Shown piece after piece: positions 16,984 through 48,395 of a stretch of 64,000 nucleotides of DNA (the first letter of the stretch is position 1; every line of letters starts with the position of its first letter). This DNA is from an uncultured Pirellulales bacterium. GTDB taxonomy: Bacteria > Planctomycetota > Phycisphaerae > Sedimentisphaerales > SM23-30. Both the position numbers and the translations under genes were made by a program. Location: positions 2,135 to 66,134 of the forward strand of contig CAYZXY010000010.1 of assembly GCA_964482555.1 (NCBI GenBank), read 5' to 3'. Below the pieces are notes generated by a model, which saw only the letters and a program-made list of their open reading frames with translations, searched no databases and was not told the origin of the DNA.

Positions 16984-17090
16984 CTCACCCCAAACCGGGT
17001 AGAAAGCTCCGGGCAGTGCCGGGTGTAAGCTTAATATTTGCAGATAGTTACGTTCCGAGAAAACGAGTAATTTCAATCGGAACAATTATA
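16984..17090 (+). repeat. R105 interspersed repeat, subtype A (5' end diverged)
   Basis: ...CCGGGTAGAAAGCTCCGGGCAGTGCCGGGTGTAAGCTTAATATTTGCAGATAGTTACGTTCCGAGAAAACGAGTAATTTCAATCGGAACAATTATA. Confidence 0.85.
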
Positions 17091-17206
17091 ATATACTCAG
17101 ATTTGGAGAAATGACGGTAGAATTGGATTTCAGTGAAATGAGATAAACCGTGATTTTTCAGGACAAATGACTATTTTTTTCAGGCTTCAGGAAGTGAGTT
17201 TGTCGC

Positions 17207-17632
17207 ATGGCAAAAGAAGTTAAAGCAGTGATTAAGTTACAGGCACCAGGTGGCCAGGCAACACCGGCGCCGCCTATCGGCCCGGCGCTGGGTCAGCATG
17301 GCGTTAACATCGGACAGTTCGTCTCGCAGTTTAATGAGCGTACCAAGGATATGGGTGGTACGACCGTGCCGGTCGAGATTTCTGTTTATGCTGACCGGTC
17401 ATTTGATTTTATCATCAAGAGTCCGCCGGCATCGGAACTTCTGAAAAAGGCGGCCCAGGTCGCCAAGGGTTCAGGTGTGCCCAATCGGGAAAAGGTGGGA
17501 AAAGTCACCGATGCCCAAGTTGAAGAAATTGCCAAAACGAAACTGAATGACCTGAATGCATTTAGTATCGAGCAGGCTAAGCGTATAGTTGCCGGCACGG
17601 CCCGCAGTATGGGCATCGAGGTTGAAGGTTAA
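17207..17632 (+). CDS. rplK: 50S ribosomal protein L11
   Basis: [27 protein letters not shown]... is the canonical L11 sequence. Confidence 0.97.
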
Positions 17633-17811
17633 GGCCTAGTAGTAAATAGCAGAATGTTGAACCCCGAAAACGGGTTAAATTTTTCACAGTATGATGGCAT
17701 ACCACGGCCGGGAACAGTGGGAGCGAAAAGATATTCTGACATTGATTCGCTTTGATTTATAGCGATAAAGGCAGTCAAGTCAGGGTGTTACATACTCGCG
17801 AGGATTGCAGA

Positions 17812-18492
17812 ATGCATATAAGAAGTAAACGTTACAAAAAAGATTCGGAATCCTTCACCAAGGAGAAATTATCCCTTGAGGAAGCTGTTGCCAAACTGAA
17901 AGGGTGGGACACCACGAAGTTTAAGCAGACTGTCGAATGTGTCGTCAATCTTGGAATTGATCCTCGACAGGCGGATCAGGCTATACGAGGTGCGATTTCA
18001 TTCCCTCACGGTATCGGGAAAACCCTGAAAGTCATCGCGTTTTGCGAAGACAGCGATGTGGAAAAGGCCAAGGCCGCCGGAGCCGTTGAGGCTGGATCGG
18101 ACGATCTGGTCAAACGGGTACAGGACGGCTGGCTTGATTTCGATGTGGCCATCGCCCACCCGAAGATGATGAGCAAAGTGGGTAAACTGGGTCGGATTCT
18201 GGGTCCGCAGGGTAAAATGCCATCTCCCAAAGGCGGAACGGTGACGCCTGATATCGAACAGGCGATTAAGGACTATTCCGCCGGTAAGGTTGAATTTCGT
18301 AACGACAGCGGCGGGAATGTTCATGTGCCGGTGGGAAAGATCAATTTTGAAGTTCCGAAACTGATAGACAACATTAATTCCTTTCTGGAACAGATAAAAA
18401 GGATGAAACCCAGCGTAACCAAAGGCGTATTTATCAAGAAAATATTTATATCCGCAACAATGAGCCCGTCTGTTGAAGTTACTGTTTCATAA
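17812..18492 (+). CDS. rplA: 50S ribosomal protein L1
   Basis: L1 signatures are present (VNLGIDPRQADQAIRG, GKMPSPKGGTVT). I prefer the ATG at 17812, which has GAGGA upstream, over the listed 17752. Confidence 0.93.
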   Translation: MHIRSKRYKKDSESFTKEKLSLEEAVAKLKGWDTTKFKQTVECVVNLGIDPRQADQAIRGAISFPHGIGKTLKVIAFCEDSDVEKAKAAGAVEAGSDDLVKRVQDGWLDFDVAIAHPKMMSKVGKLGRILGPQGKMPSPKGGTVTPDIEQAIKDYSAGKVEFRNDSGGNVHVPVGKINFEVPKLIDNINSFLEQIKRMKPSVTKGVFIKKIFISATMSPSVEVTVS

Positions 18493-18532
18493 CTAGCGGG
18501 AAGAGAACCAACCTTTACTATAAGAGGCTGAC

Positions 18533-19063
18533 ATGAGTAAACGTTTAAATAGCTTAATGTATGATGAATACAAAACCCGCTACGATGGATTGGATGAATT
18601 CATGGTTGTGTCGGTTCGCGGCGTGAGCGGCAACGACAACAACTATATGCGGGGAGAATTGCAGAAAAAAGATATTAATCTCAACGTGGTGAAAAATTCC
18701 CTGGCTTGTCAGGTTTTGAAGGACATGGGCATTGAGGGGATGGAATCCGTTTTGGTCGGTCCGAGTGCCGTGATCTATGGTGGGCAGGACATTGTTGAAC
18801 TGGCCAAGACCATTGTTGATTGGGAAAAGAAACTGGAGAAATTTGAGATCAGAGGCGGCTATCTGGGCGGCCAGATACTTGATGAGGCGGGAGCCAAGGC
18901 CATGTCTAAAATGGCCTCGCGAGTCGAATTGCAGGCGACGGTGGTCATGCTGGCGCAGTCGCCGGGTCGCCGCATAGCCGGTCAGATCGCCGCACCGGCT
19001 GGAAATATCGCCGGGTGCATTAAGACGCTGATCGAGAATAAAGAAAAAGAAGAAGCGGCATAA
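18533..19063 (+). CDS. rplJ: 50S ribosomal protein L10
   Basis: Position between rplA and rplL, with an L10-like sequence (FMVVSVRGVSGNDNNYMRGELQKKDINLNVVKNSL). Confidence 0.93.
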   Translation: MSKRLNSLMYDEYKTRYDGLDEFMVVSVRGVSGNDNNYMRGELQKKDINLNVVKNSLACQVLKDMGIEGMESVLVGPSAVIYGGQDIVELAKTIVDWEKKLEKFEIRGGYLGGQILDEAGAKAMSKMASRVELQATVVMLAQSPGRRIAGQIAAPAGNIAGCIKTLIENKEKEEAA

Positions 19064-19181
19064 GTGCCCTGTACTATTGATAGATAGATTCCTGATTTGA
19101 CAGCCCCTTCGGGGTTAAAACGAAATGACGTCATTTCGGCTCTCGAATCAAAGGTATTTATAGTAAATGGAGTAAAAACAA

Positions 19182-19637
19182 ATGTCTGAAGAAGCTGTAG
19201 TAGAAGCTGCTGAAACCACAGAAACCTCTGCAGGAACCAGTGCAAAGAATTTCAGCGATGAAATCAAATCGCTGGGCGACCAGATTGTCGGTCTGTCGCT
19301 GCTGCAGGCAAAAGAACTGGGAGACTATTTGAAGGAAGTCTATGGCATTGAGCCGGCAGCCGGCGCGGTAGCCGTAGCGGCGGCGCCCGGTGGGGGCGGC
19401 GGCGAAGTTGAAGCCGTCGAAGAAAAGACATCTTTCGATGTTGTTCTGAAGGCCGCCGGCGACCAGAAGATCAAGGTTATTAAGGAAGTGCGAGCCGCAA
19501 CGGGCCTGGGTCTCAAGGAAGCCAAGGAAGTTGTTGACGGTGCTCCCAAGACCGTGAAAGAGGGCATGAGCAAGGAAGATGCCGAGAAACTTCAGAAGGC
19601 TCTGGAAGAAGTTGGCGCCACCGTCGAACTTGCATAA
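19182..19637 (+). CDS. rplL: 50S ribosomal protein L7/L12 (about 25-aa acidic N-terminal extension)
   Basis: C-terminal domain [55 protein letters not shown]. Confidence 0.95.
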
Positions 19638-19658
19638 CCTGCGAACAATCAAGGATGA

Positions 19659-19762
19659 TATACTCAATCGGGTAGAAAGCTGCGGGCAGGGCCGGGGGCA
19701 TGCTTTTTATCCGCAAATAATTACGTTCCGAGAAAAGGGTATTTTCAATCGGAACGAGTATG
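19659..19762 (+). repeat. R105 interspersed repeat, subtype A
   Basis: TATACTCAATCGGGTAGAAAGCTGCGGGCAGGGCCGGGGGCATGCTTTTTATCCGCAAATAATTACGTTCCGAGAAAAGGGTATTTTCAATCGGAACGAGTATG. Confidence 0.9.
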
Positions 19763-19912
19763 AAGCTGAAAGGTGCAAGGATAACCGTCGTGTCCAGATG
19801 GGCATGTCTATAATACAAATGATATGTATATTGGCAAGTCGGAAGACCTTAAGCCTGTTAAGTGAATATAACGCTGTTAATTGGTCTTTGACTTTCTTTG
19901 CAGGAGACAAAG

Positions 19913-22900
19913 ATGGCATTTAATGAGGTAAGACATTTCGGTAAGTTTTTACCGATTGTTGAGATTCCTGACCTGAGTCGTATCCAGTTGCTGGGGTATG
20001 AACGTTTTCTGCAGCTGGATTCTTCGAACGATGACCGAGATTCGTTCGGACTGGATGCGCTGCTGAAGGAAATTTTCCCGATCGTCAGTTACGATGGGAA
20101 TGTGCAATTGGAATATATCAACTTCGAGTTAGGCAAGCCCCGCTACAGTCCGGATGAATGCCGGCAGTTGCGGCTGACCTACGGTCTGCCTTTCCGGATA
20201 CGCTGCCGTCTGGTCCGCAAGGGCAAAGAAGAGATCATGGAAGACAGCGTTTATCTGGGCGAAATGCCGATCATGATCGGCGGCGGCGAGTTTATCATCA
20301 ACGGGGCGGAGCGTGTGATCGTGAATCAGTTGCACCGCAGTCCCGGCGTTGATTTTGTCGTGGAAAGCCAGGAGGGCGACCGTCCACTGCACGCCTGCCG
20401 GATTATTCCCGAGCGCGGCAGCTGGATCGAAATGAACGTTACCAAGAAGGATGTCGCGGTGGTGCGTATCGATCAGTCCAGTAAGATTCCCGCGACGACG
20501 TTTCTGCGGGCCATGGACGAAAAATACAGCACGACGGAATCGATCATCCGGGAGTTTTACCCCACGAAGAATATCTCCGTTGAAAAACTCAAGGATGATA
20601 TGTGGACTGTCGGGCCGATCATCGACCCGGAAAGCGGCGAGGAGATCGTCAAAGCCGGTTGTCAGATCGGCGAGAACCTGCAACGTTTGCAGCAGTCAAC
20701 GCTGAAGAAAGTTGAAGTTTGCGACAAGGTTCGCGATATGATCATCCTCAATACGCTGGCCGAAGACAGCAGCGAAGATCACGAACAGGCATTGATGCGT
20801 ATTTATGCCCGTTTGCGTCCGGGCAATCCCGTCAAGCTGGACAAAGCTCAAACTTTTTTCAGCGAGAAGTTTTATGATGACAATCGTTATCGTCTGGGAC
20901 GTGTGGGTCGTTTCCGCTTGAACCGCAAGTTCGAGCAGGACATCAGCGAAGAGGAGATGACCCTGCGTCCGGACGATTTTCTCAATTCGATGAAATATAT
21001 TCTGAAGCTCCGCAGCAACGAAGGTTATGTGGATGATATTGACCATTTGGGTAACCGGCGTCTGCGGACGATTGAAGAGTTGGCGTCGGACGAGTTGCGT
21101 AAAGGCTTCCTGAAGTTGCGGCGCAGCGTTCAGGAGCGGATGAGCATCAAGGACATCGATCTGGTCACGCGTATCGCGGAACTGATCAATTCCAAGAGCA
21201 TCACCAGCAGCATCGAGTTTTTCTTCGGCCGCGGCGAATTGAGTCAGGTGGTGGACCAGACGAACCCGCTGAGCCAGTTGACGCACGAGCGGCGGCTGTC
21301 GGCACTGGGGCCGGGCGGTCTGAACCGCAAGCGTGCCGGCTTTGAAGTGCGTGACGTGCATATCAGTCACTACGGGCGTATTTGTCCGATCGAGACGCCG
21401 GAAGGGACAAACATCGGTCTGATCTCGTCGCTGAGTATTCATTCCAGCGTCGATGATTATGGTTTTCTGGTGACGCCGTATTTCCGGGTGGAGGACGGCA
21501 AGATCGGGGAAGTGGTCTATCTTCGTGCGGACGAGGAGATCAACGCGATTCTGGCGCCGGTGGATATCTTGAAGAAAGACAGCAGAACGCTAATGGAAGG
21601 CCCTGTTCTGGCGCGGGTATCCGGTGATCTGACGCAGGTGGACAGCAGCGAAGTGGAATTTGTCGATATCGCTCCTTATCAAACGATCGGTGTGTCGGCA
21701 GCGTTGATTCCGTTCCTGGAGCATGACGATGCGAACCGGGCGTTGATGGGGTCCAACATGCAGCGTCAGGCTGTGCCGCTGGTCTCGACCGAAGCGCCGA
21801 TGGTGGCAACAGGCATGGAAAAGCATGTCGCTGCCAACAGCAGCATGGTTATCAAAGCCCGTCGCAATGGCGTGGTGACTTACGTCGATGCCGAACGGAT
21901 TATTCTGGACGAGGCGGATGAATATCCCCTGCGGAAATTCATCGGACTCAATGAACGAACCAGCCAGAATCAGAAGCCGACCGTCAAGATCGGCGATAAG
22001 GTGACCAAAGGCCAGATCATCGCCGATGGGGCATCAACCTGCAAAGGCGAATTGGCCCTGGGCCGTAATATTCTGGTCGGCTTTATGATGTTTGACGGTT
22101 ACAATTTCGAGGACGCCATCCTGATCAGCGAGCGCATCGTCAAGGATGATGTTTTTACCAGTATTCATATTGAGGAGTTCGATATCGAGTGCCGCGAGAC
22201 CAAGCTGGGGCGGGAGGAGTTTACCCGCGATATCCCCAACGTTTCGGAAAAGGCCCTGGCGAATCTGGATGAAGGCGGCGTGGTGCGGCTCGGCACCCGT
22301 GTCAAGCCCGGCGACATTCTGGTCGGGAAGGTATCGCCCAAGAGCAAGAGCGAACTGTCTCCGGAAGAAAAACTGCTGTATGCCATTTTTGGCCGGGCAG
22401 GGGAAGACGTCAAGAACGATTCGCTGGAAGTGCCCAGCGGGCAGGAAGGCATCGTCATTGACGCCAAACGGTTCTCGCGCCGCATGCACATGAGCGACGC
22501 GCAGAAAGAGGCGCACAACAAGGCGATGAAGGATTATGATATCAAGATGGACCATCGCGTCATCGAGATATTCCGTCAGATGTCCCGTGCCCTTGAGACC
22601 CGGACGGGCATTGTGCCGGTCGATCCGTCCACCCGGCAGAAAATGGGCGTCAGCGAAAATGAGGAGATTATTAAAGAACAGATCGACAGTTTCGATTTTT
22701 CCTGGATCAAGGAAAAAGATCGTGTCGAAGAAGCGCGTGAGGTCATCGAACCTTACTGGAACCATATACAGGAGCTGATCGAAGAGAAGAAACGTAAGCT
22801 CCAGCAACTGAAGCGCGGCGACGAACTGCCTTCCGGCGTGCTGGAAATGGTGAAGGTCTATATCGCCACCAAGCGGCAGATGTCCGTGGGCGACAAGATG

Positions 22901-31165: not shown

Positions 31166-31460
31166 ATAGAAGTGAAACCACGAATTTCACAGGGGGCAAG
31201 GCGAGCGTTAAGTGGAATCGGGGTATAGGGTTCTGGTTTTCGGGTATAGTCCCAGATGAACCACCAAGACACGAGGGCTCTAAGATAATCAAGGTAATCA
31301 CGAAGATGTATGATTGATCGAGATTTAGCGGCAAAGGGCAGGAGGCACAAGAAATGTTTTTTTGGGGGGATAGAGATCCCTTTAAGTCTTGAGGGCCTAA
31401 AAAGACGAGAAAGGTTGAGGGGTATTTTGGGGAAAATCAGGAGATTTTTTTGGCAAAGGG

Positions 31461-31489
31461 TTGACAAGGGGAAATGAAATGGCTATATT
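31461..31489 (+). promoter_or_regulatory. Candidate sigma70 promoter (distal) in the fusA-rpsJ spacer
   Basis: TTGACA (31461-31466), a 17-nt spacer, then TATATT (31484-31489). Confidence 0.4.
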
Positions 31490-31706
31490 GGTCGAATCAA
31501 CTGGAAGCGAGCGGTTGTCACGGAAGCGGCCGCGTTAGTGTAAGTTGAATTCTTACCTAGACTTAGCTCATGGATGGGAGATGAGTTATCACTAATCATC
31601 GCTGATGCGAAGCCATTATTTGTTTTGGCTTTTCCGGTTGTTTATATTCATAAATTCCAGAAATAATTTTTCTGACAAAAAATTAATAAATAATTAAGAA
31701 AAATTG

Positions 31707-31735
31707 TTGACGCGGCTGGTGAAACAGGTATCATT
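31707..31735 (+). promoter_or_regulatory. Candidate sigma70 promoter (proximal) for the S10 operon
   Basis: TTGACG, a 17-nt spacer, then ATCATT, preceded by an A/T-rich UP-like tract (31660-31705). It lies about 110 nt upstream of rpsJ. Confidence 0.3.
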
Positions 31736-31848
31736 GCTGGTCTGTTTAATTTACGGCCCAAAAGCCGGTGGCAGATGGAACTTTCTGGGAGACAAGCTGT
31801 TACAGGTATTGTTGACCGGCCGGGAGCCCGGCCAAGAGGAGTCTTTTT

Positions 31849-32906: not shown

Positions 32907-33560
32907 ATGATAGAGTTGCCCGTTTATAATCGAGAAGGACAGGAAGTCGATCGCATGCAGATCGACGAGGCCCTGCTGGGTGAGAAGGTCCGGCATAGCC
33001 TGTTAAAGCAGGCGTTGGTGATGTACCATGCGAATCGTCGCGTGGGAACGGCCAGCACGAAGAGCCGGAGTCTGGTAGCCGGTTCGACCCGGAAGCTGTA
33101 TCGTCAGAAGGGTACGGGGCGGGCCCGGATGGGAGCCAACCGTACAGTGGTGCGTAAAGGCGGCGGCGTGGCATTTGCCAAGAAGGCCCGAGATTTTTCC
33201 CTGCGGATGCCGAAGAAGCAGCGTCGCATGGCGCGTAATTCGGCGATTCTGGCCAAGCTGCAAAGCAACGACGCCATCGTGATTGACAAGTTGGAGTTTG
33301 ACGCCCCCCGGACGAAGGATTTTGTCGGTATTCTGGACAACCTCAAGGTGGACAAGGGCCGCAGTTGCCTGGTGGCCATGGATGATTACAATGTCAATGC
33401 GATCAAATCGCTGCGGAATATACCGCGGGTAGATGCGATGGAAGTGGATCAGTTGAATGCCGGCGACATTTGCAACCGCCGGAAGATTCTGTTTACCTTG
33501 AATGCCTTGAACATATTCCTGGATTCCTGCAGGCAGAACAATGGCGAGACGCCGGAATGA
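32907..33560 (+). CDS. rplD: 50S ribosomal protein L4
   Basis: The L4 motif KGTGRARMGANRTVVRKGGGVAFA is present and gene order fits. Confidence 0.95.
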   Translation: MIELPVYNREGQEVDRMQIDEALLGEKVRHSLLKQALVMYHANRRVGTASTKSRSLVAGSTRKLYRQKGTGRARMGANRTVVRKGGGVAFAKKARDFSLRMPKKQRRMARNSAILAKLQSNDAIVIDKLEFDAPRTKDFVGILDNLKVDKGRSCLVAMDDYNVNAIKSLRNIPRVDAMEVDQLNAGDICNRRKILFTLNALNIFLDSCRQNNGETPE

Positions 33561-33647
33561 GAATTTCCGCCAGGGCCAAACGCGAGTGTTTTATCCGCAC
33601 TTAATTACGTTGGGGCCCAACGAAATAATTCAATCGTAACGAGTATA
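33557..33647 (+). repeat. R105 repeat, B-like, 5'-truncated; overlaps the rplD stop codon
   Basis: ATGAGAATTTCCGCCAGGGCCAAACGCGAG...TTATCCGCACTTAATTACGTTGGGGCCCAACGAAATAATTCAATCGTAACGAGTATA. The TATACCC...GGGTA head is missing. Confidence 0.75.
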
Positions 33648-33667
33648 GAAGACGAGAGGACCGAGCC

Positions 33668-33946
33668 GTGGATAAATATCAAGTGATCATCAAACCGCTG
33701 GTTACAGAGCAGGGCACGCATCAGGCGCGAACTCTGAACGCGTATCCGTTCCAGGTGCACACCAAAGCCAATAAAACGGAAATCAAGCTGGCGATTGAGA
33801 AGATTTATAATGTCAAGGTTGAGGAAGTACGTACCGCCAACCGGAAGGGCAAGCCTCGTCGTCGCGGATATATCCGCAGTACCACATCGAATTGGAAGAA
33901 GGCAGTCGTTAAGCTGCAAGAAGACCATCATATTGATTTGTTCTAA
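33668..33946 (+). CDS. rplW: 50S ribosomal protein L23
   Basis: GTG start. KPLVTEQGT...FQVHTKANKTEIKLAIEKIYNVKVEEVRT matches L23. Confidence 0.93.
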   Translation: MDKYQVIIKPLVTEQGTHQARTLNAYPFQVHTKANKTEIKLAIEKIYNVKVEEVRTANRKGKPRRRGYIRSTTSNWKKAVVKLQEDHHIDLF

Positions 33947-33999
33947 TGAAGATATTAATATAGACGCACAGGCGTAACTGCAAAAACAGTGAGACTCTT

Positions 34000-34851
34000 A
34001 TGCCAATTAAAGTATATAAACCAACGAGTAACGGCCGCAGAAATTCTTCGGTAAACGCCTATACCGAATTGACGAAGGATCATCCGGAAAAGTCGCTGAC
34101 CAAGCGTATCAAGAAGACCGGCGGGCGGAATCACAGCGGTAAGACGACGGTCCGTTTCCGTGGAGGCGGTGCGAGGAAGAAATATCGCATTATCGATTTC
34201 AAACGGAACAAGGACGGCATGACGGCGACGGTCGCGGCGATCGAATACGATCCCAATCGCACCTGTTTTATCGCGTTGCTGGAATATCAGGACGGTGAAA
34301 AGCGTTATATGCTGGCACCGCAGGGCTTGCGGGTTGGCGAGATTGTGGAAAGCGGCCGGAAGGTCGAACCGAAAACCGGTAACTGTATGCCTCTGGCTTC
34401 GATACCCGTGGGGCTGGAAGTTCACAATATTGAAATGAATCCCGGGCAGGGCGGCAAGATGGTTCGTTCCGCCGGGGCGGTGGCCCGCCTGGGAGCCAAA
34501 GATAACGGAATGGCCCATATTATCTTGCCCAGCGGTGAAATGCGTATGGTGTCGTTAAAGTGCCGGGCGACTATCGGTCAGATCGGCAATACGGATCATC
34601 AGAATGTTTCGATAGGTAAAGCCGGTCGCAAGCGTCATATGGGCCGACGTCCACATGTCCGCGGCAAGGCGATGAACCCTGTCGCGCATCCGATGGGCGG
34701 TGGTGAAGGCCGCTCGAACGGCGGTCGTCATCCCTGTTCGCCGACGGGAGTGCTGGCCAAGGGCGGCAAAACGCGTAGTGCGCGAAAAACGAGCGGCAAA
34801 TGGATTATTCGTCGTAGAAAGAGTAAACGTTACGGGCAGCTGGTACTGTAA
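34000..34851 (+). CDS. rplB: 50S ribosomal protein L2
   Basis: [14 protein letters not shown]...[13 protein letters not shown] matches L2. Confidence 0.97.
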
Positions 34852-34867
34852 AGCAGGATAATAAACG

Positions 34868-35137
34868 ATGGGACGATCATTAAAAAAAGGCCCTTTTGTA
34901 GATGAGAAACTCTTCCAGAAGGTCATGAAGCTGGATGAAGAAGGTAAACACGACGCGTTGAAGACCTGGGCTCGGCGCTGCACGATAGTGCCGGAATTTG
35001 TGGGCCATACATTTATGGTCTATAACGGCAAGGTGTTTAACAAAGTTTATGTCACCGAAGATATGGTGGGGCATAAACTGGGTGAGTTTTCGCCGACACG
35101 GATCTTCCGGGGTCATGCCGGCAGCAAGAAGAAGTAG
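34868..35137 (+). CDS. rpsS: 30S ribosomal protein S19
   Basis: [15 protein letters not shown]...[10 protein letters not shown]...[11 protein letters not shown] matches S19. Confidence 0.97.
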
Positions 35138-35138
35138 T

Positions 35139-35243
35139 TATACCCAAAGGGTATGAGAATTCCCGCCAGGGCCAGTCGTAAAGGCATTGCCCGCACATAG
35201 TCATGTTTTGACAAAACGGGAATTTTCAATTGGAACGAATATA
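35139..35243 (+). repeat. R105 interspersed repeat, subtype B
   Basis: TATACCCAAAGGGTATGAGAATTCCCGCCAGGGCCAGTCGTAAAGGCATTGCCCGCACATAGTCATGTTTTGACAAAACGGGAATTTTCAATTGGAACGAATATA. It starts 1 nt after the rpsS stop. Confidence 0.92.
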
Positions 35244-35283
35244 ATAAATGACAGTAAGCCTGGTGATAGATAGGTGAAAGCTT

Positions 35284-35853
35284 ATGTTAAGCGGTGAAAA
35301 ATTAAAGAAGTATCGCACGGACAGCGGGAAGACCGTAGAAGAGCTGGCAGAACATTTGTTGCCAGCGGGTTTGGAAGACGGGGAGCGTGACGTTCAGCTT
35401 AAGACGGCCGTTTCCAGCGTTAAAAACTGGGAACGCGGTCTTTACAAACCCCGGCCGACATCAAGAGAGTTGTCGCAGCTCGCACAAACACTGGGTGTCG
35501 AGCAATTGGATTTGCATGTATGGAAAGCCTCGCATAATCATTGTCCCATGGCGCCGCGGAAGGTGCGGCTGGTGGCAGATCTGATTCGCGGCCGGCATGT
35601 GCAGGATGCTCTGGATGTGTTGAAGTTTACGAATAAGCGGGCGGCCGTAATGGTGGACAAAGTGCTTCGCAGCGCGATTGCGAATGCGGATGAGAACGAA
35701 GCGAATATTGAACGGCTGTTTGTGTCGGAGTCGCGTGTGGATGAGGGCGGCGTTCGTCAGGGGACGCGTCGCTGGCGTCCGAAAGATCGCGGTCGGGCGG
35801 TGCCTTTCACCCGGTTGTCGAGTCATATACATGTCAGTGTGGATATGGAATAA
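35284..35853 (+). CDS. rplV: 50S ribosomal protein L22 with an in-frame ~75-aa N-terminal XRE-type HTH extension
   Basis: The C-terminal ~113 aa are canonical L22 ([41 protein letters not shown]...[22 protein letters not shown]). The N-terminal part reads [22 protein letters not shown]...[37 protein letters not shown] lies 7 nt upstream of the ATG at 35284. Confidence 0.85.
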   Translation: [189 protein letters not shown]

Positions 35854-35881
35854 TCCTGATTTAAGAGATTGAGGTTTATAT

Positions 35882-36571
35882 ATGGGTCAGAAGGTATCGC
35901 CAATAGGATTCAGAACCGGAATTACCCGCGGCTGGAAAAGTCGCTGGTTTGCTCCGAAGGCGGCTTACGGAACGTTTCTAATAGAAGATCAGATGATTCG
36001 TAAGTTTGTGGATAACCGTCTTAATAAGCAACCTCCGTATGCCGCAGTTGCTAATATCGATATAGAACGGACGCGTGATGATGTCCGTGTGACGCTGCAT
36101 ACCTCGCGGCCGGGCCTGGTAATCGGACCTAAAGGCGCCGAGATCGAAAAGCTGCGAGAAGCGATAGAAGACCTGATCAACCGCAAGGTAACCGTTAACG
36201 TGATGGAAGTGAAGACGCCGGAGCTTGATGCCCAACTGGTTGCGGAGGCGATTTCGGAGCAGCTTAAGCGTCGGGCGGCATTTCGCCGGGTGATGAAGCA
36301 GCATTGCGAGGCAGCCATGGCCAACGGCGCCAGCGGTGTGAAGATTATCTGTTCGGGTCGTCTGGGCGGGGCGGAACTGGCTCGCTCGGAGAAGCAGATT
36401 CTGGGCAGCATTCCGCTGCAGACGTTGCAGGCGGATGTTGATTACGGATTAACTGTGGCAGTAACGACTTATGGCGCAATTGGAATCAAAGTCTGGATTT
36501 TTAAAGGCATGTTTTACGATGCCAGGCAGGAACAAGAGCAGGAGAAGGGCGGCCAGAAGTATAAAAAGTAG
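35882..36571 (+). CDS. rpsC: 30S ribosomal protein S3
   Basis: MGQKVSPIGFR.G....W.S.WFA with KH and S3-C domain sequence. Confidence 0.97.
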   Translation: MGQKVSPIGFRTGITRGWKSRWFAPKAAYGTFLIEDQMIRKFVDNRLNKQPPYAAVANIDIERTRDDVRVTLHTSRPGLVIGPKGAEIEKLREAIEDLINRKVTVNVMEVKTPELDAQLVAEAISEQLKRRAAFRRVMKQHCEAAMANGASGVKIICSGRLGGAELARSEKQILGSIPLQTLQADVDYGLTVAVTTYGAIGIKVWIFKGMFYDARQEQEQEKGGQKYKK

Positions 36572-36690
36572 GGCTGTATGAGTCTGTTGATGATCATGTG
36601 AACAATGATTTCTGAATCGCTGGATGCGGCAGGGATCGCTATAAGATAAAGCTGAATATAAGCTTAGTCATTTATAATTGAGGTGTCGTT

Positions 36691-37110
36691 ATGGCGTTAA
36701 TGCCCAAACGAGTTAAATGGAGAAAATATCAGCGCGGCCGCATTAAAGGCAAGGCGTGCAAAGGGAATTATGTGGCCTTTGGCGATTTCGGTTTGCAGGC
36801 TCTGGGAGAAGCGAAGATAACCGGCCGTCAGATCGAAGCAGGCCGTGTGGCCGCGACGCACTTTTTGAGACGTGAAGGAAAGATTTACATTCGTATTTTC
36901 CCGCATCGCTCCGTGAGTGGCAAGCCGCTGGAAACGCGTATGGGTAAAGGTAAGGGCGAACCGGATTTCTGGGTGGCTCATATTAAACCCGGAACGGTGT
37001 TGTATGAAGTTGGCGGAGTGCCGGAGAACATAGCCCGGCAGGCCATGACCCGTATCGCTCATAAGATGCCGGTTCGCTGCCGGTTCGTTCGTCGTCGTCA
37101 TGCGGTGTAG
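36691..37110 (+). CDS. rplP: 50S ribosomal protein L16
   Basis: MPKRVKWRKYQRGRIKG...RMGKGKGEPDFWVAHIKPG matches L16. Confidence 0.97.
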   Translation: MALMPKRVKWRKYQRGRIKGKACKGNYVAFGDFGLQALGEAKITGRQIEAGRVAATHFLRREGKIYIRIFPHRSVSGKPLETRMGKGKGEPDFWVAHIKPGTVLYEVGGVPENIARQAMTRIAHKMPVRCRFVRRRHAV

Positions 37111-37146
37111 CAGAGATCAGGACATAGTATAATACAAGAAGTAAGA

Positions 37147-37250
37147 TATACCAAAGGGTATGAGAATCCCCGCCAGGGCCAGTCGTAAAGGCTTTGCCCG
37201 CACATAATTGTGTTTGGATAAAGCGGGAATTTTCAATCGGAACGAGTATA
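37147..37250 (+). repeat. R105 interspersed repeat, subtype B
   Basis: TATACCAAAGGGTATGAGAATCCCCGCCAGGGCCAGTCGTAAAGGCTTTGCCCGCACATAATTGTGTTTGGATAAAGCGGGAATTTTCAATCGGAACGAGTATA. It ends 7 nt before the rpmC ATG. Confidence 0.92.
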
Positions 37251-37257
37251 AGGCGCC

Positions 37258-37479
37258 ATGAATATCAAAGAAATCAGAGAAATGAATCCAGATGAACTGC
37301 CTGAAGAGTTGGAACATCAACATCAAAAGCTGTTTGATTTAAGATCACAGGCTGTAACAGAGAAGCTGGAAGATCCGACGCAGCTTATCAAGATAAAGCG
37401 AACGATTGCCCGGATCAAAACGGTATTAAGGGAACGTGAACTGGCGGCGGAAGCCCAGACAGCAGCGGCAGAAAAGTAA
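37258..37479 (+). CDS. rpmC: 50S ribosomal protein L29
   Basis: IKEIREMNPDELPEELEHQHQKLFDLRSQ... is L29-like, and the position after rplP fits. Confidence 0.92.
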   Translation: MNIKEIREMNPDELPEELEHQHQKLFDLRSQAVTEKLEDPTQLIKIKRTIARIKTVLRERELAAEAQTAAAEK

Positions 37480-37498
37480 GCGTACTAAGGAATAATCT

Positions 37499-37756
37499 AT
37501 GGCTGAGAAGGAACGTAAAGAACCTACGTTATATCGAGGAATAGTATCCTCAAAATCCGGAGATAAGACGGTTAAGGTGTTGTTGAATTATATGATGCGG
37601 CATCCTAAATACGGTAAGTCGCTCCGGCGTCGTACGATCGCTCACGCACACGATGAGAAGAATGAGGCCGTCGTGGGCGATACCGTTGATATTTGCAAAT
37701 GTCGTCGTTTGAGCGCCACGAAAAGCTGGCGGCTGGTGAATATTGTTAAGAATTAA
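37499..37756 (+). CDS. rpsQ: 30S ribosomal protein S17
   Basis: GIVSSKSGDKTVKVLLNYMMRHPKYGK...AHDEKNEAVVGDTVDICKCRRLSATKSWRL matches S17. Confidence 0.95.
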   Translation: MAEKERKEPTLYRGIVSSKSGDKTVKVLLNYMMRHPKYGKSLRRRTIAHAHDEKNEAVVGDTVDICKCRRLSATKSWRLVNIVKN

Positions 37757-37788
37757 AGTAAACCATTTTATTCAGGCGTGAAGCTGTC

Positions 37789-38175
37789 ATGATTCAAGCA
37801 GAAACTATAATAGATGTAGCCGACAACACGGGGGCGAAGACGGCCCAGTTCATTCGTGTTCTGGGCGGCAGTACGGCCCGGGGGCAATATACGCGACGAA
37901 CAGCCACGGTAGGCGATATCGTGCTGGTGTCGATCAAGAAATCGTTGCCGACGATGAACCTGGACAACAAGAAGGTGTATAAGTGTGTTGTGATTCGTAC
38001 AAAGTATCCGGTGATGCGTCCGGACGGCAGTTATGTCCGTTTCGACAGCAATGCCGGGGTATTGATCGATGATAACGGCAATCCGATCGGAACGCGTATT
38101 TTTGGTGCCGTCGCCCGCGAGCTCCGGGAAAAGAACTTTATGAAAATCATATCTCTGGCTTCGGAGGTGGTGTAA
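37789..38175 (+). CDS. rplN: 50S ribosomal protein L14
   Basis: [17 protein letters not shown]...[19 protein letters not shown] matches L14. Confidence 0.97.
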
Positions 38176-39331: not shown

Positions 39332-39366
39332 AAAAACGAAATAAACTCGATTGTAACGAGCATTTA
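39332..39366 (+). repeat. Degenerate 3'-module fragment of R105
   Basis: AAAAACGAAATAAACTCGATTGTAACGAGCATTTA resembles the 3' end of the 33557 copy (AACGAAATAATTCAATCGTAACGAGTATA). Confidence 0.4.
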
Positions 39367-40913: not shown

Positions 40914-41426
40914 ATGGTGGCTCAATTTAAACCACAACAAAGAGGTTTCGAAGAAAGCAGTCCTTATGTAGAAACAGTCGTAAAGGTTTACCGCTGTTCC
41001 ACAGTAGTCAAAGGCGGTCGCAGATTCAGTTTTGCCGCACTGGTAGTGGTTGGCAACCGTAATGGTGAAGTAGGATTCGGTTACGGCAAGGCCAACGAAG
41101 TGCCGCCTGCGGTGGAGAAATCCATCAAAGATGCCCGGCGGAACCTGGTTAAGGTTAATCTTCGCGGCAATACCATCCCGCATAAAGTCATCGGTCGTTT
41201 TGGCGCGACCCGTGTGATGCTGATGCCGGCCAGTGAAGGAACCGGCGTTATTGCCGGGGCTTCGGCACGGGCGATGCTTGAATTGGCGGGTGTGCGTGAC
41301 GTACTAACTAAAGTGTACGGCAGTACCGGCCCGAAGAATGTGGTCAAGGCGACGATGAACGCTCTGAAATCTCTGATTTCCAAAGAGGAAGTAGAGCGGC
41401 TTCGCGGCGTGACCATAGAGGTGTGA
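40914..41426 (+). CDS. rpsE: 30S ribosomal protein S5
   Basis: [40 protein letters not shown] matches S5. Confidence 0.96.
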
Positions 41427-41469
41427 ATTTAAAGCATTATTTTGTTATACATGATAGGGAATTACCATC

Positions 41470-42021
41470 ATGATGATTCATGAGATTACAGCGTTAGTTG
41501 GTCGTCATTCTATTCGGCGACGTAAGGGAAGAGGGCAAGGCAGTGGTTTGGGTAAAACAGCCGGTCGCGGTCATAAAGGACAGATGTCCCGTGCCGGCAA
41601 GCGTCCGCCCATTACCAAAGAAGGCGGTCAGATGCCGCTGTTTCGCCGTTTGCCCAAGCGTGGATTCAATAACGTCAATTTTACATTGCGTTATGAGATA
41701 GTGAACGTAGCACAGCTCGATTGTTTTTCCGAAGGGACGACGGTGAACGCGGAATGTCTGAGTCAGGCCGGCCTGATTCGCGGGGGCGGTATGCCGGTGA
41801 AAATTCTGGGTGATGGCGAGCTGAACCGCAAGCTTGTCGTGGTCGCCGACAAATTCAGCCGCAGTGCCGAGCAAAAGATTACCAGTGCCGGGGGGTCGGC
41901 GGAATTGACAGATAAAGCGAGGAAACTGGTCGAAGCCGCCGGCAAAGGCAAGCGGGCGAAGAAGGCCAAACCCCGAGCAGAGGTGGAGAAGGTTCAAGAA
42001 GCTGAAGAGGGAAATGATTAA
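41470..42021 (+). CDS. rplO: 50S ribosomal protein L15 (Lys/Glu-rich C-terminal tail)
   Basis: RRKGRGQGSGLGKTAGRGHKGQMSRAG matches L15. It follows rpsE directly, with no L30 gene in the 43-nt gap. Confidence 0.95.
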   Translation: MMIHEITALVGRHSIRRRKGRGQGSGLGKTAGRGHKGQMSRAGKRPPITKEGGQMPLFRRLPKRGFNNVNFTLRYEIVNVAQLDCFSEGTTVNAECLSQAGLIRGGGMPVKILGDGELNRKLVVVADKFSRSAEQKITSAGGSAELTDKARKLVEAAGKGKRAKKAKPRAEVEKVQEAEEGND

Positions 42022-43414: not shown

Positions 43415-44061
43415 TAGTGGTTTTTCTTGGCCCTCCCGGTGCCGGCAAAGGTACGCAGTGTAAATACATAGTAGACCGTTATGGGTTGCAACACATGTCC
43501 AGCGGCGATATCCTGCGGCGTGAGCGCAAGGAAGGTACGGAGCTGGGACAGAAGGCTCAGGAGTACATGGACCGGGGCGACCTGGTGCCGGACGATCTGA
43601 TCGTGGCGATGATGATGAAGGAAATTGCCGCCAGCAATGCAAAAGGTTTTATCTTTGATGGTTTTCCGAGAACCATCGGTCAGGCTAAAGAGCTTGACAA
43701 GGCATTGAGCGACGACGGCAAGAAGATAGATGCCGTTTTGAATCTGGAAGTGGATGACGCAAAACTGGAAGAGCGGATTACGGGTCGTCGCAGTTGCACC
43801 AAATGCGGCGCGGCGTATCATGTTAAATTCAATCCGCCTAAAGATGACAATCAATGTGATAACGGCGGCGGTGAATTGACGCAACGGCCAGACGATACGC
43901 CCGAGGTGGTTCGTAATCGAATCAAGACTTATCACGATCAGACCGCTCCGTTGATAGATTACTATAAGAACAGCGATAATTTAATAGATATAGACGGTAA
44001 TGTTGATATCGACCAGGTAACCGGACAGATCTACACCTCGTTAGATCAGGTTCGAGCCTGA
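43411..44061 (+). CDS. adk: Adenylate kinase
   Basis: P-loop GPPGAGKGTQ and a lid region CTKCGAAYHVKFNPP. Confidence 0.96.
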   Translation: MIVVFLGPPGAGKGTQCKYIVDRYGLQHMSSGDILRRERKEGTELGQKAQEYMDRGDLVPDDLIVAMMMKEIAASNAKGFIFDGFPRTIGQAKELDKALSDDGKKIDAVLNLEVDDAKLEERITGRRSCTKCGAAYHVKFNPPKDDNQCDNGGGELTQRPDDTPEVVRNRIKTYHDQTAPLIDYYKNSDNLIDIDGNVDIDQVTGQIYTSLDQVRA

Positions 44062-44068
44062 AAAATAC

Positions 44069-44848: not shown

Positions 44849-44858
44849 ATTGCCTTTT

Positions 44859-44963
44859 TATAGCCAATCGGGTAGAAAGCTCCTGGCAGGGCCGGGTGTA
44901 AGCTATTTATCCGTATATAACTATTATCCGACACAATGGATAATTTCAACCGGAGCGAGTATA
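44859..44963 (+). repeat. R105 interspersed repeat, subtype A
   Basis: TATAGCCAATCGGGTAGAAAGCTCCTGGCAGGGCCGGGTGTAAGCTATTTATCCGTATATAACTATTATCCGACACAATGGATAATTTCAACCGGAGCGAGTATA. Confidence 0.88.
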
Positions 44964-45009
44964 TATATGCAAACTAAAATTATTGAAAAAAAATATAAGA
45001 TATAATGTT

Positions 45010-45225
45010 ATGGGTAAAAGTGAAGCTATAAAAGTCGATGCGACCGTCATAGAGGCGATGCCTAACGCGGTGTTCAAGGTCGCCCTCGAAGGTGGGCATG
45101 AGATAACGGCCCATGTTTCGGGTAAGATGCGTATGAATTTCATACGTATACTGCCGGGCGATACGGTAACCGTAGAGGTAAGTCCGTATGATTTGACAAA
45201 AGGGCGCATTATTCTTCGAAAATAG
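45010..45225 (+). CDS. infA: Translation initiation factor IF-1
   Basis: [71 protein letters not shown] prefer the internal ATG at 45010 over the listed 44983. Confidence 0.93.
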
Positions 45226-45285
45226 ATTAGGTATGAGGCATTCCATCGACCGAAGATGCGGATGTCATCTCGAGGTGAGAAGGTT

Positions 45286-45405
45286 ATGAAAGTTAGAGCT
45301 TCTGTAAAAAGAATTTGTGAAAATTGTAAAATCATCAAACGGAAAGGAATTGTCCGGGTGATATGCTCGGCGAATCCCCGTCACAAACAACGTCAAGGTA
45401 AGTAA
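45286..45405 (+). CDS. rpmJ: 50S ribosomal protein L36
   Basis: Hand-translated 39-aa ORF: [39 protein letters not shown], with GGTGAGAAGG upstream. Confidence 0.92.
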
Positions 45406-45416
45406 TGAGGTGAAAC

Positions 45417-45800
45417 ATGCCACGTATAGCTGGTAATGACATTCCTAATGATAAGCAGATATGGATTTCATTGACATATTTGCACGGTATCGGCCCTTAT
45501 ATGTCGAAGCAGATACTTAAAGAGGCGCAGATTCCGGAAAATACCAAGGCCAAGGATTTGACGGATGATGAGTTAAGTCGCATCAATACGATACTGGAGC
45601 GCAGTTATGTGATTGAAGGTCAGTTGCGTCGTCAGACGGGCCAGAATATTTCACGTTTGAAAGAGATCGCCTGCTACCGGGGTTTGCGACATCGTCGCGG
45701 CTTGCCGGTTCGCGGCCAGAACACGCAAAAGAACGCCCGCACCCGCAAAGGTCCGCGTAAGACCGTTGCCGGCAAGAAGGGTGTCAAGGCCATGCGTTAA
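45417..45800 (+). CDS. rpsM: 30S ribosomal protein S13
   Basis: [26 protein letters not shown]...[18 protein letters not shown] matches S13. Confidence 0.97.
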
Positions 45801-45865
45801 CGATAATTAGCCGCCGGATAGCGTTAAGGCTATACCAGAGATAGATGGAATCACAATATGAGATT

Positions 45866-45969
45866 TATACCCAAAGGGTTAAAAAGTTTCCGGCAGGGCC
45901 GGATGTAAGCATTATATTTGCAGATAATTACGTTCCTAAAAACGGGTAATTTGAATCGGAGCGAGACAA
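45866..45969 (+). repeat. R105 interspersed repeat, subtype A variant
   Basis: TATACCCAAAGGGTTAAAAAGTTTCCGGCAGGGCCGGATGTAAGCATTATATTTGCAGATAATTACGTTCCTAAAAACGGGTAATTTGAATCGGAGCGAGACAA. Confidence 0.88.
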
Positions 45970-46008
45970 TGAACCTGTAAACGGGATCAAAGAAACCAGG
46001 AAAATTAC

Positions 46009-46392
46009 ATGGCAAAAAAAGGAACCAAAAAACGAGTAAGACGGCACGTTGGCAAAGGCATCGTTCACATTAAAGCGTCATTTAATAATACGCTTGTCAC
46101 GATTACGGATGTGAATGGTGATACCCTGTGCTGGGATTCGGCAGGGACCATCGGCTTCAAAGGCTCTCGAAAAAGCACCCCTTTCGCCGCCCAGCAGGCA
46201 GCGGAAAAATGCGCTAATCTCGCCAAGAAATATGGCGTTACGGAGTTGGAAGTGAGAGTGAAAGGTGCCGGTTCGGGTCGCGAATCCGCAATTACCGCCT
46301 TGCAGTCTGCCGGGATCCGGATATCCTCCATTGAGGATGTGACGCCGCTGCCCCATAACGGGTGCCGTCCGTGTAAGAAACGCCGTGTTTAA
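46009..46392 (+). CDS. rpsK: 30S ribosomal protein S11
   Basis: [44 protein letters not shown] matches S11. Confidence 0.97.
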
Positions 46393-46448
46393 TATAAGAA
46401 GTTTGATTAGATAATTGACGTTTTATGATATAAGGAATCGTACAGCTT

Positions 46449-47081
46449 ATGGCTAGAGATATAGGTGCAGTATGCCGGATGTGTCGGCGTGAAGGCATGA
46501 AATTGTTTTTGAAAGGGATGCGCTGTGAGACCGCCAAGTGTCCTATTGAAAAACAAAACCGGAACAAACCACCGGGAATGCATTCCTGGCGTCGAGGTCG
46601 TCTGAGCGATTATGGCGTTCACTTGCGGGAAAAGCAAAAGGTCAAGCGTTATTACGGCGTTTTAGAAAAGCATTTTCAGATCTGTTTTGAAGAAGCGGAA
46701 CGTATCCGCGGCAATACCGGAGAAGCCTTACTGGTGCTGCTGGAACGTCGTCTGGATAATGTCGTCTTCAAGATGAACTGGGCCGGGTCGCGTCGGCTGG
46801 CTCGTCAGTTGGTAGCTCACGGACATATATATGTGAACGGTCACAAACTGGATGTACCCAGTTATATGGTCAAACAGGGCGACAAGATTGCTTTGAAGCC
46901 ATCGGAAAAGACCCTGAAGATGGTCAAGCACGAGATCGAAACTGATGGCGGTTCGCCGGTGCAGTCGTGGCTTCAGGTCAATCCATCGGTGCCGGAGGGA
47001 GTGGTGGTGGCCATGCCCTCTCGTGATGAAGTGCAGATCCCGGTTGAAGAACAATTAATTGTTGAGTTCTGTTCCCGCTAA
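46449..47081 (+). CDS. rpsD: 30S ribosomal protein S4 (Cys-rich N-terminus)
   Basis: CRMCRREGMKLFLKGMRCETAKCP plus an S4 RNA-binding domain (RLDNVVFKMNWAGSRRLARQLVAHGHIYVNG). Confidence 0.96.
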   Translation: MARDIGAVCRMCRREGMKLFLKGMRCETAKCPIEKQNRNKPPGMHSWRRGRLSDYGVHLREKQKVKRYYGVLEKHFQICFEEAERIRGNTGEALLVLLERRLDNVVFKMNWAGSRRLARQLVAHGHIYVNGHKLDVPSYMVKQGDKIALKPSEKTLKMVKHEIETDGGSPVQSWLQVNPSVPEGVVVAMPSRDEVQIPVEEQLIVEFCSR

Positions 47082-47288
47082 TCGATCCGGACAGGTTTGA
47101 CGCTCGAACAGGATCGTACGATTATTAACAAGAAATGAAAATGCCGGATTTCATAGCATGCCGGCATGAAGCTTGGACGGCTTCGCCCAACAGTAAGTTA
47201 CATTATCTTTACAGGCCTCATGTGGGAAGTTACCACAAGAGATGATAGTGGCTGATAGTGGCAAGCGAAGCTTGATGGAGGCCGAAAT

Positions 47289-48317
47289 ATGCGAATAAGG
47301 TGGCGTGGACTCGAGTTACCAACGACGATTGAACTGGATAAGAATGTTTCGACCCCGACATATGGACGACTGTATATTGAGCCATTTGAGCGTGGTTTCG
47401 GGACGACAGTAGGTAACAGCCTGCGGCGAATTCTGCTTTCTTCACTGGAAGGCAGCGCGGTTAATTACATTAAGATCAAAGGCGCGGATCATGAATTTGC
47501 GTCAATTCCGGGCATAGTGGAAGATGTCACGGAACTGGTCTTGAATGTGAAATCTCTGATTATCAGAATGGAGACGAGTGGTCCCAAGACATTACGAGTC
47601 GAGCGGCATGAAGCCGGGGTCGTTACCGCGGCGGATATTGCAACCGATGCGAATGTCAAGATTATCAATCCTGAGCAGGTCATCGCGACGCTGACGCAGG
47701 ATATTGATTTTGAGATGGAAATGAACGTGACGAAGGGTCGCGGCTATGTTTCCGTCCGCGACGCCCGGGTTCAGAGTCTTGAACACGGCGTCATCCCGAT
47801 CGACGCGATTTATTCTCCGGTCATGCGTGTCCGATATAAGACGGAAGAGACCCGGGTAGGACAGTATATCGATTACGATCGTCTGATTATGGATATCTGG
47901 ACGAACGGGACGATCGATCCGGAAATGGCTCTGGTGGAATCGGCGAAGATTTTGCGAAAGCACCTGACGCCGTTCATTACTTACTTTGAAATCGGTCAGG
48001 AGCAAACCGGTACCGTGCCGGAAATCGTGGAAGAAGAGGAATCGTACGTCGATGAAGAATTGCAGCGGAAGCTGGATATGCCGATTTCGGATCTGGAATT
48101 GTCCGTTCGGGCCAGCAACTGCCTGGAAATGGCGAAAATTGAAACCGTCGGACAACTGGCCTCAATGGATGAAAATGAGCTGCTGGCTTTGCGAAGTTTC
48201 GGTAAGACCAGTTTGCGCGAAGTAAAGCGAAAACTGGCGGACCTGGGAGTACCGATGGGTGGCGGCGGTTCGATCGATGATGATGACGAGGATGTTGAAG
48301 AAGGTGATGAAGAATAA
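47289..48317 (+). CDS. rpoA: DNA-directed RNA polymerase subunit alpha (acidic C-terminal tail)
   Basis: NTD (GTTVGNSLRRILLSSLEGSAV) and CTD (LELSVRASNCLEMAKIETVGQL), ending GGGGSIDDDDEDVEEGDEE. Confidence 0.97.
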   Translation: MRIRWRGLELPTTIELDKNVSTPTYGRLYIEPFERGFGTTVGNSLRRILLSSLEGSAVNYIKIKGADHEFASIPGIVEDVTELVLNVKSLIIRMETSGPKTLRVERHEAGVVTAADIATDANVKIINPEQVIATLTQDIDFEMEMNVTKGRGYVSVRDARVQSLEHGVIPIDAIYSPVMRVRYKTEETRVGQYIDYDRLIMDIWTNGTIDPEMALVESAKILRKHLTPFITYFEIGQEQTGTVPEIVEEEESYVDEELQRKLDMPISDLELSVRASNCLEMAKIETVGQLASMDENELLALRSFGKTSLREVKRKLADLGVPMGGGGSIDDDDEDVEEGDEE

Positions 48318-48344
48318 GAGTTTGTTGCGGGAACAAAAATGGCC

Positions 48345-48395
48345 GTTTCCGGCAGGACCGGTTTTGAGATATAGTTTTTATCAGGCGCATACAAC
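48345..48395 (+). repeat. Possible degenerate remnant of the R105-A central hairpin region
   Basis: GTTTCCGGCAGGACCGGTTTTGAG...TTTTTATCAGGCGCATA resembles GCTTCCGGCAGAACCGGG...CTTTTTATCCGCATATA. The hairpin CCGG-CAGGA-CCGG followed by TTTT could also serve as the rpoA terminator. Confidence 0.3.

Follow-up and report, generated by a model that had tools for sequence, protein, structure and literature searches.

Why should one short repeat recur between the cistrons of ribosomal-protein (r-protein) and RNA polymerase (RNAP) operons, each time pointing in the direction of transcription? The question is posed by R105, a repeat of ~105 nt scattered along 64,000 nt of DNA from an uncultured Sedimentisphaerales bacterium (GenBank assembly GCA_964482555.1, contig CAYZXY010000010.1, positions 2,135 to 66,134), the whole of which we call the window. 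R105 is a new family of MITEs (miniature transposable elements with inverted repeats), ordinary in kind and somewhat unusual in degree. It is probably a non-autonomous DNA transposon that inserts at and duplicates TA, travels in these operons as a passenger, and owes its excess of sense copies to a filter acting after insertion.

The window has a G+C content of 50.4%, and its plus strand carries tuf-secE-nusG-rplKAJL-rpoBC-rpsLG-fusA together with a complete S10/spc/alpha cluster (NCBIfam), in which adk is present and rpmD absent. Genes were called by codon-usage score and then checked against Pfam and NCBIfam; the closest named relatives by ribosomal protein S3 are metagenome-assembled genomes (MAGs) of Sedimentisphaerales/Phycisphaerae, the nearest only 83-85% identical. 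The repeat was defined concordantly by repeat finding, nhmmer and R1, a sequence-only covariance model trained on 18 copies. R1 has 21 matches in the window (~1 per 3 kb; 17 on the plus and 4 on the minus strand), all outside coding sequence. Two subfamilies, A and B, differ across the middle third of the element, and one copy is an A/B hybrid. An earlier note on this DNA had placed seven full copies and two fragments at junctions of the r-protein and RNAP operons, all in sense orientation; R1 and NCBIfam confirmed the full copies, and all nine are indeed sense:

16989..17091, plus strand: subfamily A copy at nusG–rplK, sense, 85.4 bits; 47 nt past the nusG stop, 115 nt before the rplK start, 5' terminus degraded.
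19659..19761, plus strand: subfamily A copy at rplL–rpoB, sense, 91.6 bits; begins 21 nt past the rplL stop.
33552..33647, plus strand: subfamily B copy at rplD–rplW, sense, 72.2 bits; 5'-truncated (model positions 10-105), rplW start 20 nt downstream.
35139..35244, plus strand: subfamily B copy at rpsS–rplV, sense, 86.9 bits; begins 1 nt past the rpsS stop, with 39 nt left between its end and the rplV start.
37150..37251, plus strand: subfamily B copy at rplP–rpmC, sense, 84.1 bits; 3' end 6 nt before the rpmC ATG.
39334..39362 (29 nt), plus strand: decayed 3' remnant at rpsN–rpsH, sense; model positions ~75-104, closest to the 3' part of the 33552 copy.
44859..44964, plus strand: subfamily A copy at map–infA, sense, 87.1 bits; begins 10 nt past the map stop.
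45866..45969, plus strand: subfamily A copy at rpsM–rpsK, sense, 83.8 bits.
About 48344-48360 (17 nt, within 48344..48372), plus strand: short internal remnant (GTTTCCGGCAGGACCGG…) at rpoA–rplQ, sense.

The two fragments match R1 only weakly, at E-values that are not significant (8.2 at rpsN–rpsH, 0.19 at rpoA–rplQ). In local alignment to individual copies, however, each beats 200/200 shuffles, with scores of 31 vs a null maximum of 27 and 29 vs 28, respectively, which seven control spacers do not; we accept both as decayed R105 remnants. Decay in the window takes several forms: there are 5'-truncated, 3'-only and internal remnants, two copies are down to 17-29 nt, and others lack a terminus. 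At rplD–rplW, the stop codon of rplD (TGA, 33558-33560) and its last few codons lie inside the truncated copy, which is missing its first 9 nt; the C-terminal tail of the product, L4, is variable among relatives and has been rewritten here by R105 insertion or a later deletion. The downstream gene, rplW, has a Shine-Dalgarno-like GAGAGGA of its own.

What kind of element is this? The R105 core is 101 nt long (TACCC…(C/G)AGTA) and, read with its flanks, becomes TATACCC…(G/C)AGTATA, with TA on both flanks in most copies. The ends form imperfect terminal inverted repeats: the first 24 nt match the reverse complement of the last 24 at 14/24 positions in subfamily A, 15/24 in B and 13/24 in C, a third subfamily described below (p = 0.0006-0.004 against shuffles). 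R105 has no coding capacity, all six-frame peptides being 35 aa or shorter; it is small (<300 bp) and dispersed over unrelated loci, with further copies on three metagenomic contigs, L017, L018 and L023. Subfamily C came to light when JGI metagenomes were scanned with a degenerate pattern; two contigs, L017 and L018, both from a single sample, carry it. Short-read (Logan) contigs of the source organism itself tend to break in the repeat, as all four contig ends examined (L001 and L012) fall inside R105 copies.

The decisive locus came from a protein database searched with translated R105 open frames, which returned two matches, P0121 and P0122. P0121 is an insertion sequence (IS) protein, a transposase of IS3-like type with an integrase core, and its final 36 residues come from a subfamily C copy translated in antisense. 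On the contig of P0121, L023, from another metagenome, that copy (825-930) interrupts the transposase gene, the frame of which resumes directly after the copy, shifted by one base. If 103 nt are removed, namely the 101-nt core and one TA, the rejoined frame (…GPQFIAKDFKEFIKVSG…; …DNGPQFIAKDFKEFIKVSGTTHVKTSPYYPQSNGK…) is recovered together with the full integrase-core domain; the Pfam rve score is then 67.2 bits (profile positions 3-102), against 56.2 bits (3-84) for the interrupted protein. Excision of 106 nt instead yields only 56.9 bits, and a model with a 4-bp TATA duplication leaves the frame broken. This reconstruction of the empty site therefore indicates that an R105-type element transposes and duplicates TA, and is direct evidence of transposition with TA duplication at one reconstructed site.

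The same locus bears on the suggestion that R105 is immobile, its copies being small RNA genes or structured cis-regulatory RNAs of one family that many operons either recruited or carried along in duplication. Sense orientation would fit such a family, as would the folding of individual copies, with z-scores down to -4 to -6; the mean z-score is only -1.8, though, the genes flanking R105 are functionally unrelated, the element is absent from relatives, and no Rfam model matches it. An interrupted transposase open reading frame (ORF) with a TA duplication largely refutes this reading, which we regard as very improbable.

For elements of the IS630 family, TA is the almost exclusive target and is duplicated on insertion (PMC2170065). 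Since TA insertion with TA duplication is the signature of IS630/Tc1-mariner elements, R105 can be linked to a transposase of this type, and is most likely mobilized by one in trans. Self-adjacent copies, both tandem (55429/55577) and head-to-head (60368/60475), are to be expected of the element because its own flanks recreate TA-rich targets; in the head-to-head pair, a single A separates two TA-flanked 5' ends. Two subfamily C loci (L017 7161-7304 and L018 1377-1521) are composite: the 5' module of the element in partial form (model positions 1-42) directly abuts a near-full copy (4-105), which suggests a longer variant that itself propagates. A scan of viral contigs for the R105 pattern gave 0 matches, and one of genome contigs with the R105 3' end gave nine among the matches listed, all by chance and in unrelated phyla. 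The 359-aa genes that adjoin R105 copies in the window and on L017 are unrelated to each other.

Among described elements, R105 most resembles RUP of Streptococcus pneumoniae, the textbook bacterial MITE of the TA-duplicating type: 107 bp long, with IS630-Spn1-like terminal repeats, a TA target and insertions in IS transposase genes (PMC2229807, PMC3049150). The sizes are nearly identical (101 nt plus a TA at each end vs 107 bp); both elements are non-coding, high-copy and intergenic, with terminal inverted repeats and insertion at TA, and both land in IS transposase genes, as the subfamily C copy that splits the IS3-like gene illustrates. They differ in phylum and show no sequence similarity, and RUP is associated with IS630-Spn1, whereas no cognate IS630-like element was found for R105. 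In addition, the local density of R105 is far higher (21 copies in 64 kb), and its strong sense bias inside S10/spc/alpha and rplKAJL-rpoBC is not described for RUP (PMC2229807, PMC3049150).

Resemblances to other families are looser. Like R105, the Correia (NEMIS) elements of Neisseria are MITEs of ~100-150 bp that have ends starting TATA…, lie close to gene starts and are co-transcribed, presumably so in the case of R105. Correia elements duplicate TA. They differ from R105 in their long, near-perfect terminal repeats, which are a substrate of RNase III, and in their defined promoters and IHF site; the repeats of R105 are only ~60% matched, and it has no consistent promoter. Through RNase III or their promoters, Correia elements are able to influence mRNA (PMC10969869, PMC2229807). 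The ERIC/IRU repeats of enterobacteria (~127 bp) are likewise intergenic and co-transcribed within operons (again presumed for R105), and their effects on the stability of upstream mRNA depend on orientation (PMC2229807, PMC3049150). ERIC is the best precedent for orientation-related selection, although its sequence and hosts are different and its demonstrated mechanism, through RNase E, has no demonstrated counterpart in R105. REP/BIME and IS200/IS605-derived repeats are also small, intergenic, hairpin-containing and transcribed (as R105 presumably is), and can show strand bias. R105 lacks both the 20-40-nt palindromic unit with a GTAG or CGTC head found in REP/BIME and the conserved 4-5-nt target on one flank, and instead has a 2-bp duplication and inverted ends. 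An IS200/IS605-derived palindromic element (PATE) or REP was accordingly rejected as its identity: the left flanks share only TA, the ends are inverted, and a 2-bp duplication fits best. No MITE family for Phycisphaerae or Planctomycetota was found described in the literature searched, as far as can be told.

If R105 is mobile, is it nevertheless needed where it sits? The earlier note had proposed comparing the same operon junctions in related genomes, and we did so in a JGI population (L014-L016; S3 85% identical), a second population (L019-L022; 85%, rplP–rpmC junction only) and an NCBI MAG (GCA_016930295.1, L024/L025; 83%). Gene order is the same, and R105 is absent from these operons in all three relatives; L024, the sole relative locus checked for other repeat families, yielded none. 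As none of the available relatives has the element, the insertions post-date the split from them, and because the relatives run the same operons without it, the copies are dispensable for operon function. That some copies are decaying to remnants also argues against a required function.

The comparison also corrects the scale against which the occupied spacers were judged. The lengths given in the earlier note, 146 nt at rpsS–rplV, 147 nt at rplP–rpmC and 107 nt at rplD–rplW, are exact, and R105 makes up most of each occupied spacer; the assumed baseline of 0-30 nt is wrong for this clade, in which the R105-free relatives already have 38-100 nt at the same junctions. Nor is the r-protein/RNAP segment enriched for R105, with 7/38 junctions occupied vs 8/23 elsewhere. 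In the history that we propose, R105 amplified within a single lineage of Sedimentisphaerales (Phycisphaerae, Planctomycetota), where it gave rise to subfamilies A and B at the least; a sister subfamily, C, occurs in another metagenome population. Copies survive only in intergenic DNA; with r-protein spacers already fairly long and holding TA sites, several could have landed there and persisted, presumably to be co-transcribed as passengers.

There remains the orientation of the copies, for which those outside the r-protein and RNAP operons must also be considered:

735..840, plus strand: copy upstream of a plus-strand gene for pyruvate:ferredoxin oxidoreductase (1233-4820; Pfam), 84.4 bits.
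1003..1105, plus strand: B-like, diverged copy upstream of the same gene, 67.8 bits.
4845..4947, plus strand: subfamily A copy 24 nt past the stop of that gene, sense, 92.7 bits.
52059..52161, minus strand: copy between minus-strand genes for a STAS protein (52216-52572) and an anti-sigma kinase (51527-52027) (Pfam), sense, 70.7 bits.
52597..52701, plus strand: copy in a 569-nt spacer between two minus-strand genes (Pfam), antisense, 69.8 bits.
52894..52999, plus strand: copy in the same 569-nt spacer, antisense, 86.1 bits.
55429..55532, minus strand: copy with its 3' end 7 nt upstream of the start of a minus-strand GFO/IDH/MocA oxidoreductase gene (Pfam), sense, 88.1 bits.
55577..55660, minus strand: partial copy (model positions 2-85) in tandem with the preceding one, 42.7 bits.
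58135..58240, plus strand: subfamily B copy between divergent genes, 82 nt upstream of an AsmA-like one (Pfam), 89.4 bits.
59728..59769, plus strand: 3' part (model positions 65-106), its end 1 nt short of the PTPS start codon, sense, 21 bits, E=1.6e-5.
60368..60473, minus strand: B/A hybrid, head-to-head with the next copy, antisense, 93.7 bits.
60475..60580, plus strand: subfamily A copy 15 nt upstream of a McsA-like gene (Pfam), sense, 97.1 bits.
61133..61236, plus strand: copy between the McsA-like and McsB genes, sense, 91.7 bits; 3' end 6-12 nt before the likely McsB start.
63972..64000, plus strand: 5' end of a copy cut by the window end, 14.6 bits, E=0.0015.

Overall, 17 copies are sense and 3 antisense; the earlier note had counted 16 of 19 with the same three exceptions, and its argument that cut-and-paste insertion should occur in both directions holds up. 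Our test was restricted to copies between co-directional genes, the informative contexts, and left out those in divergent or convergent intergenic regions because these are always sense to one neighbor by construction. Among the 17 informative copies, 14 are sense and 3 antisense (binomial p=0.013); the ratio is 13:3 without one tandem partial and 16:3 (p=0.004) with the two remnants. All three antisense copies lie outside tight operon junctions, two in the single 569-nt spacer and one in the head-to-head pair, within a 456-nt leader. The leader, which precedes the McsA-like and McsB genes (60249-60580), has upstream of that pair a near-consensus sigma-70-like promoter (TTGACG-17-TATAAT, 11/12 matches), and the pair, if transcribed, could form a hairpin of ~105 bp.

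The bias is most economically read as purifying selection acting on antisense copies where spacers are transcribed: such copies would do more harm and so be removed after insertion. A candidate mechanism for the filter is suggested by the element's ends. In an antisense copy, the stable hairpin at the terminus (TACCC-N3/4-GGGTA) would come to lie immediately ahead of the next start codon, where a sense copy would instead present an A/U- and purine-rich 3' end, and sense 3' ends often lie 1-20 nt from the next start (PTPS 1, rpmC 6, McsB 6-12, GFO 7, McsA 15 and rplW 20 nt). The pattern of 3' ends is suggestive, and this placement of the terminal hairpin is our preferred candidate explanation for the filter. 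Two other causes were considered and set aside. The 3' TA of R105 is often followed by A, and the asymmetry of TA targets as a neutral cause of the bias is too small (TAA 161 vs TTA 140 in spacers). A terminator or promoter specific to the antisense strand found no support either, a terminator-like hairpin with a U-run being somewhat commoner on the sense strand of subfamily A.

Several points weigh against the passenger-and-filter reading as a whole. No autonomous partner or IS630-like transposase with matching ends was found, and the window contains no transposase; TA duplication is seen at one reconstructed empty site, alongside the TA…TA flanks of most copies, and the terminal inverted repeats are weak (~60% identity). 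The search for a harmful signal specific to antisense R105 failed. One helix (columns 67-73 with 94-100) shows a few compensatory changes, with G-U outnumbering A-C mismatches (21 vs 6), which may leave room for RNA-level constraint on the sense strand. Above all, 17/21 model matches (19/23 with the two remnants) lie on the leading plus strand, so identified because GC skew is positive over the whole window, even across a 6.9-kb minus-strand gene. The sense bias is not separable from leading-strand bias in the sequence analyzed, and the cut-and-paste DDE mechanism predicts neither.

The bias might thus be set relative to replication, through strand-specific insertion, for example by a single-strand IS200/IS605-type derivative or another replication-coupled route, with copies looking sense because the operons are co-oriented with the fork. 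The skew and the strand counts just given favor this, as does contig L017, where the G-rich strand is the minus strand and all R105 copies lie on it; hairpins lie near both ends of R105. Only minus-strand gene contexts separate transcription from replication, and these split just 3 sense to 2 antisense (copy strand vs gene strand, Fisher p=0.053), although three minus-strand copies do follow minus-strand genes. The flanks, however, share only TA in place of the 4-5-nt left-flank target that IS200/IS605 requires, the 5' hairpin starts at the very terminus, so that a guide sequence would not fit, the two ends are repeats in inverted orientation, and the L023 empty site fits a 2-bp duplication. 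We find this explanation doubtful. The sense bias itself is real and of modest interest, drawn from few cases and fully confounded with replication direction.

Alternatively, sense copies could have been co-opted as intercistronic RNA modules, namely processing sites, 3' or 5' stabilizers, translation leaders or partial attenuators that tune or decouple r-protein and RNAP cistrons. E. coli has regulatory sites at nusG–rplK and rplL–rpoB, and here both junctions hold subfamily A, with its hairpin and UUUUU. The uniform orientation of the nine operon copies and remnants would suit such a role, as would the nearness of many 3' ends to the next start codon, the G-U excess noted above, and the fact that the decayed copies at 39334-39362 and 59728-59769 have kept only the part adjacent to the start codon. 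Precedents exist in the orientation-dependent effects of ERIC and in RNase III cleavage of Correia elements (PMC2229807, PMC10969869). Single R105 copies also fold modestly better than shuffles, slightly more so on the sense strand (mean z -1.8 sense, -1.2 antisense; mean fold energy -26.8 vs -23.5 kcal/mol).

Tests of RNA function nevertheless gave little for this idea to build on. Rfam at the gathering threshold found only three tRNAs in the whole window and no match to R105, and up to E=10 it gave no R105 match within 33000-38000, where there are three copies. RNAalifold on 15 and on 24 copies returned 3 pairs (about -1 kcal/mol); for three helices chosen by hand, 71% of cells are paired vs 69% in shuffles, and subfamilies A and B fold differently. 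No consistent terminator or promoter is present in R105 in either orientation, promoter-like matches being sporadic, and its 3' end supplies no consistent Shine-Dalgarno sequence. The operon copies are not better conserved than the others, some being truncated or decayed; relatives have the same operons without R105, and the same element adjoins unrelated genes and sits inside an IS gene. There is thus no support for a dedicated RNA role, and we judge co-option unlikely. In a more specific version, a selfish MITE would have been domesticated as a modular intercistronic RNA in S10/spc/alpha and rplKAJL-rpoBC, providing processing or stability sites or translation leaders, with subfamily A copies possibly acting as attenuators; this is a long shot, and, if true, r-protein stoichiometry here would be set in part by transposon-derived RNA. 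The inference that the earlier note had drawn from the sense bias, selection or mRNA function, is reasonable and partly supported: the bias beneath it stands (14:3), confounded with replication and based on few copies, and no sign of RNA function accompanies it.

Some features of the window lie apart from these copies. The fusA–rpsJ spacer (31166-31848) is unusually long, at 683 nt vs 378 nt in the relative L014, and by eye contains promoter-like sequences near 31462 (TTGACA…TATATT) and 31709 (TTGACG…TATCAT). Just 3' of the fusA stop (31205-31245), two GGGTATAG motifs ~25 nt apart resemble the halves of the R105 5' hairpin and may be remnants of further copies. The rpmD (L30) gene is missing from between rpsE and rplO (41426-41470), and adk lies between secY and map. 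L22 (35284-35853) is 189 aa long; its L22 domain (residues 82-186) is preceded by an N-terminal extension of ~80 aa, which relatives have too, beginning likewise with ATGTTAAGC (L014 9384-9953; L025 173-742). L17 has 215 aa and a sub-threshold match to the NCBIfam 'sunset domain variant' model (127 bits vs a cut-off of 280). A minus-strand ORF of 2291 aa (6535-13410) has weak Ig-like matches only (Cep192, ASH, HYDIN, DUF1573) and probably encodes a giant surface protein.

For those who work with this lineage, R105 has practical consequences: it breaks short-read assemblies and creates false ORF extensions, as in the rplD tail and stop codon, upstream-extended McsB starts and the N-terminus of P0122. 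More broadly, it indicates that the most conserved and most highly expressed of bacterial operons can absorb repeated 100-nt transposon insertions between their cistrons. With ~20% of the junctions in r-protein and RNAP operons occupied, and all in one direction, this organism offers a natural system for studying orientation-dependent selection on transcribed mobile DNA.

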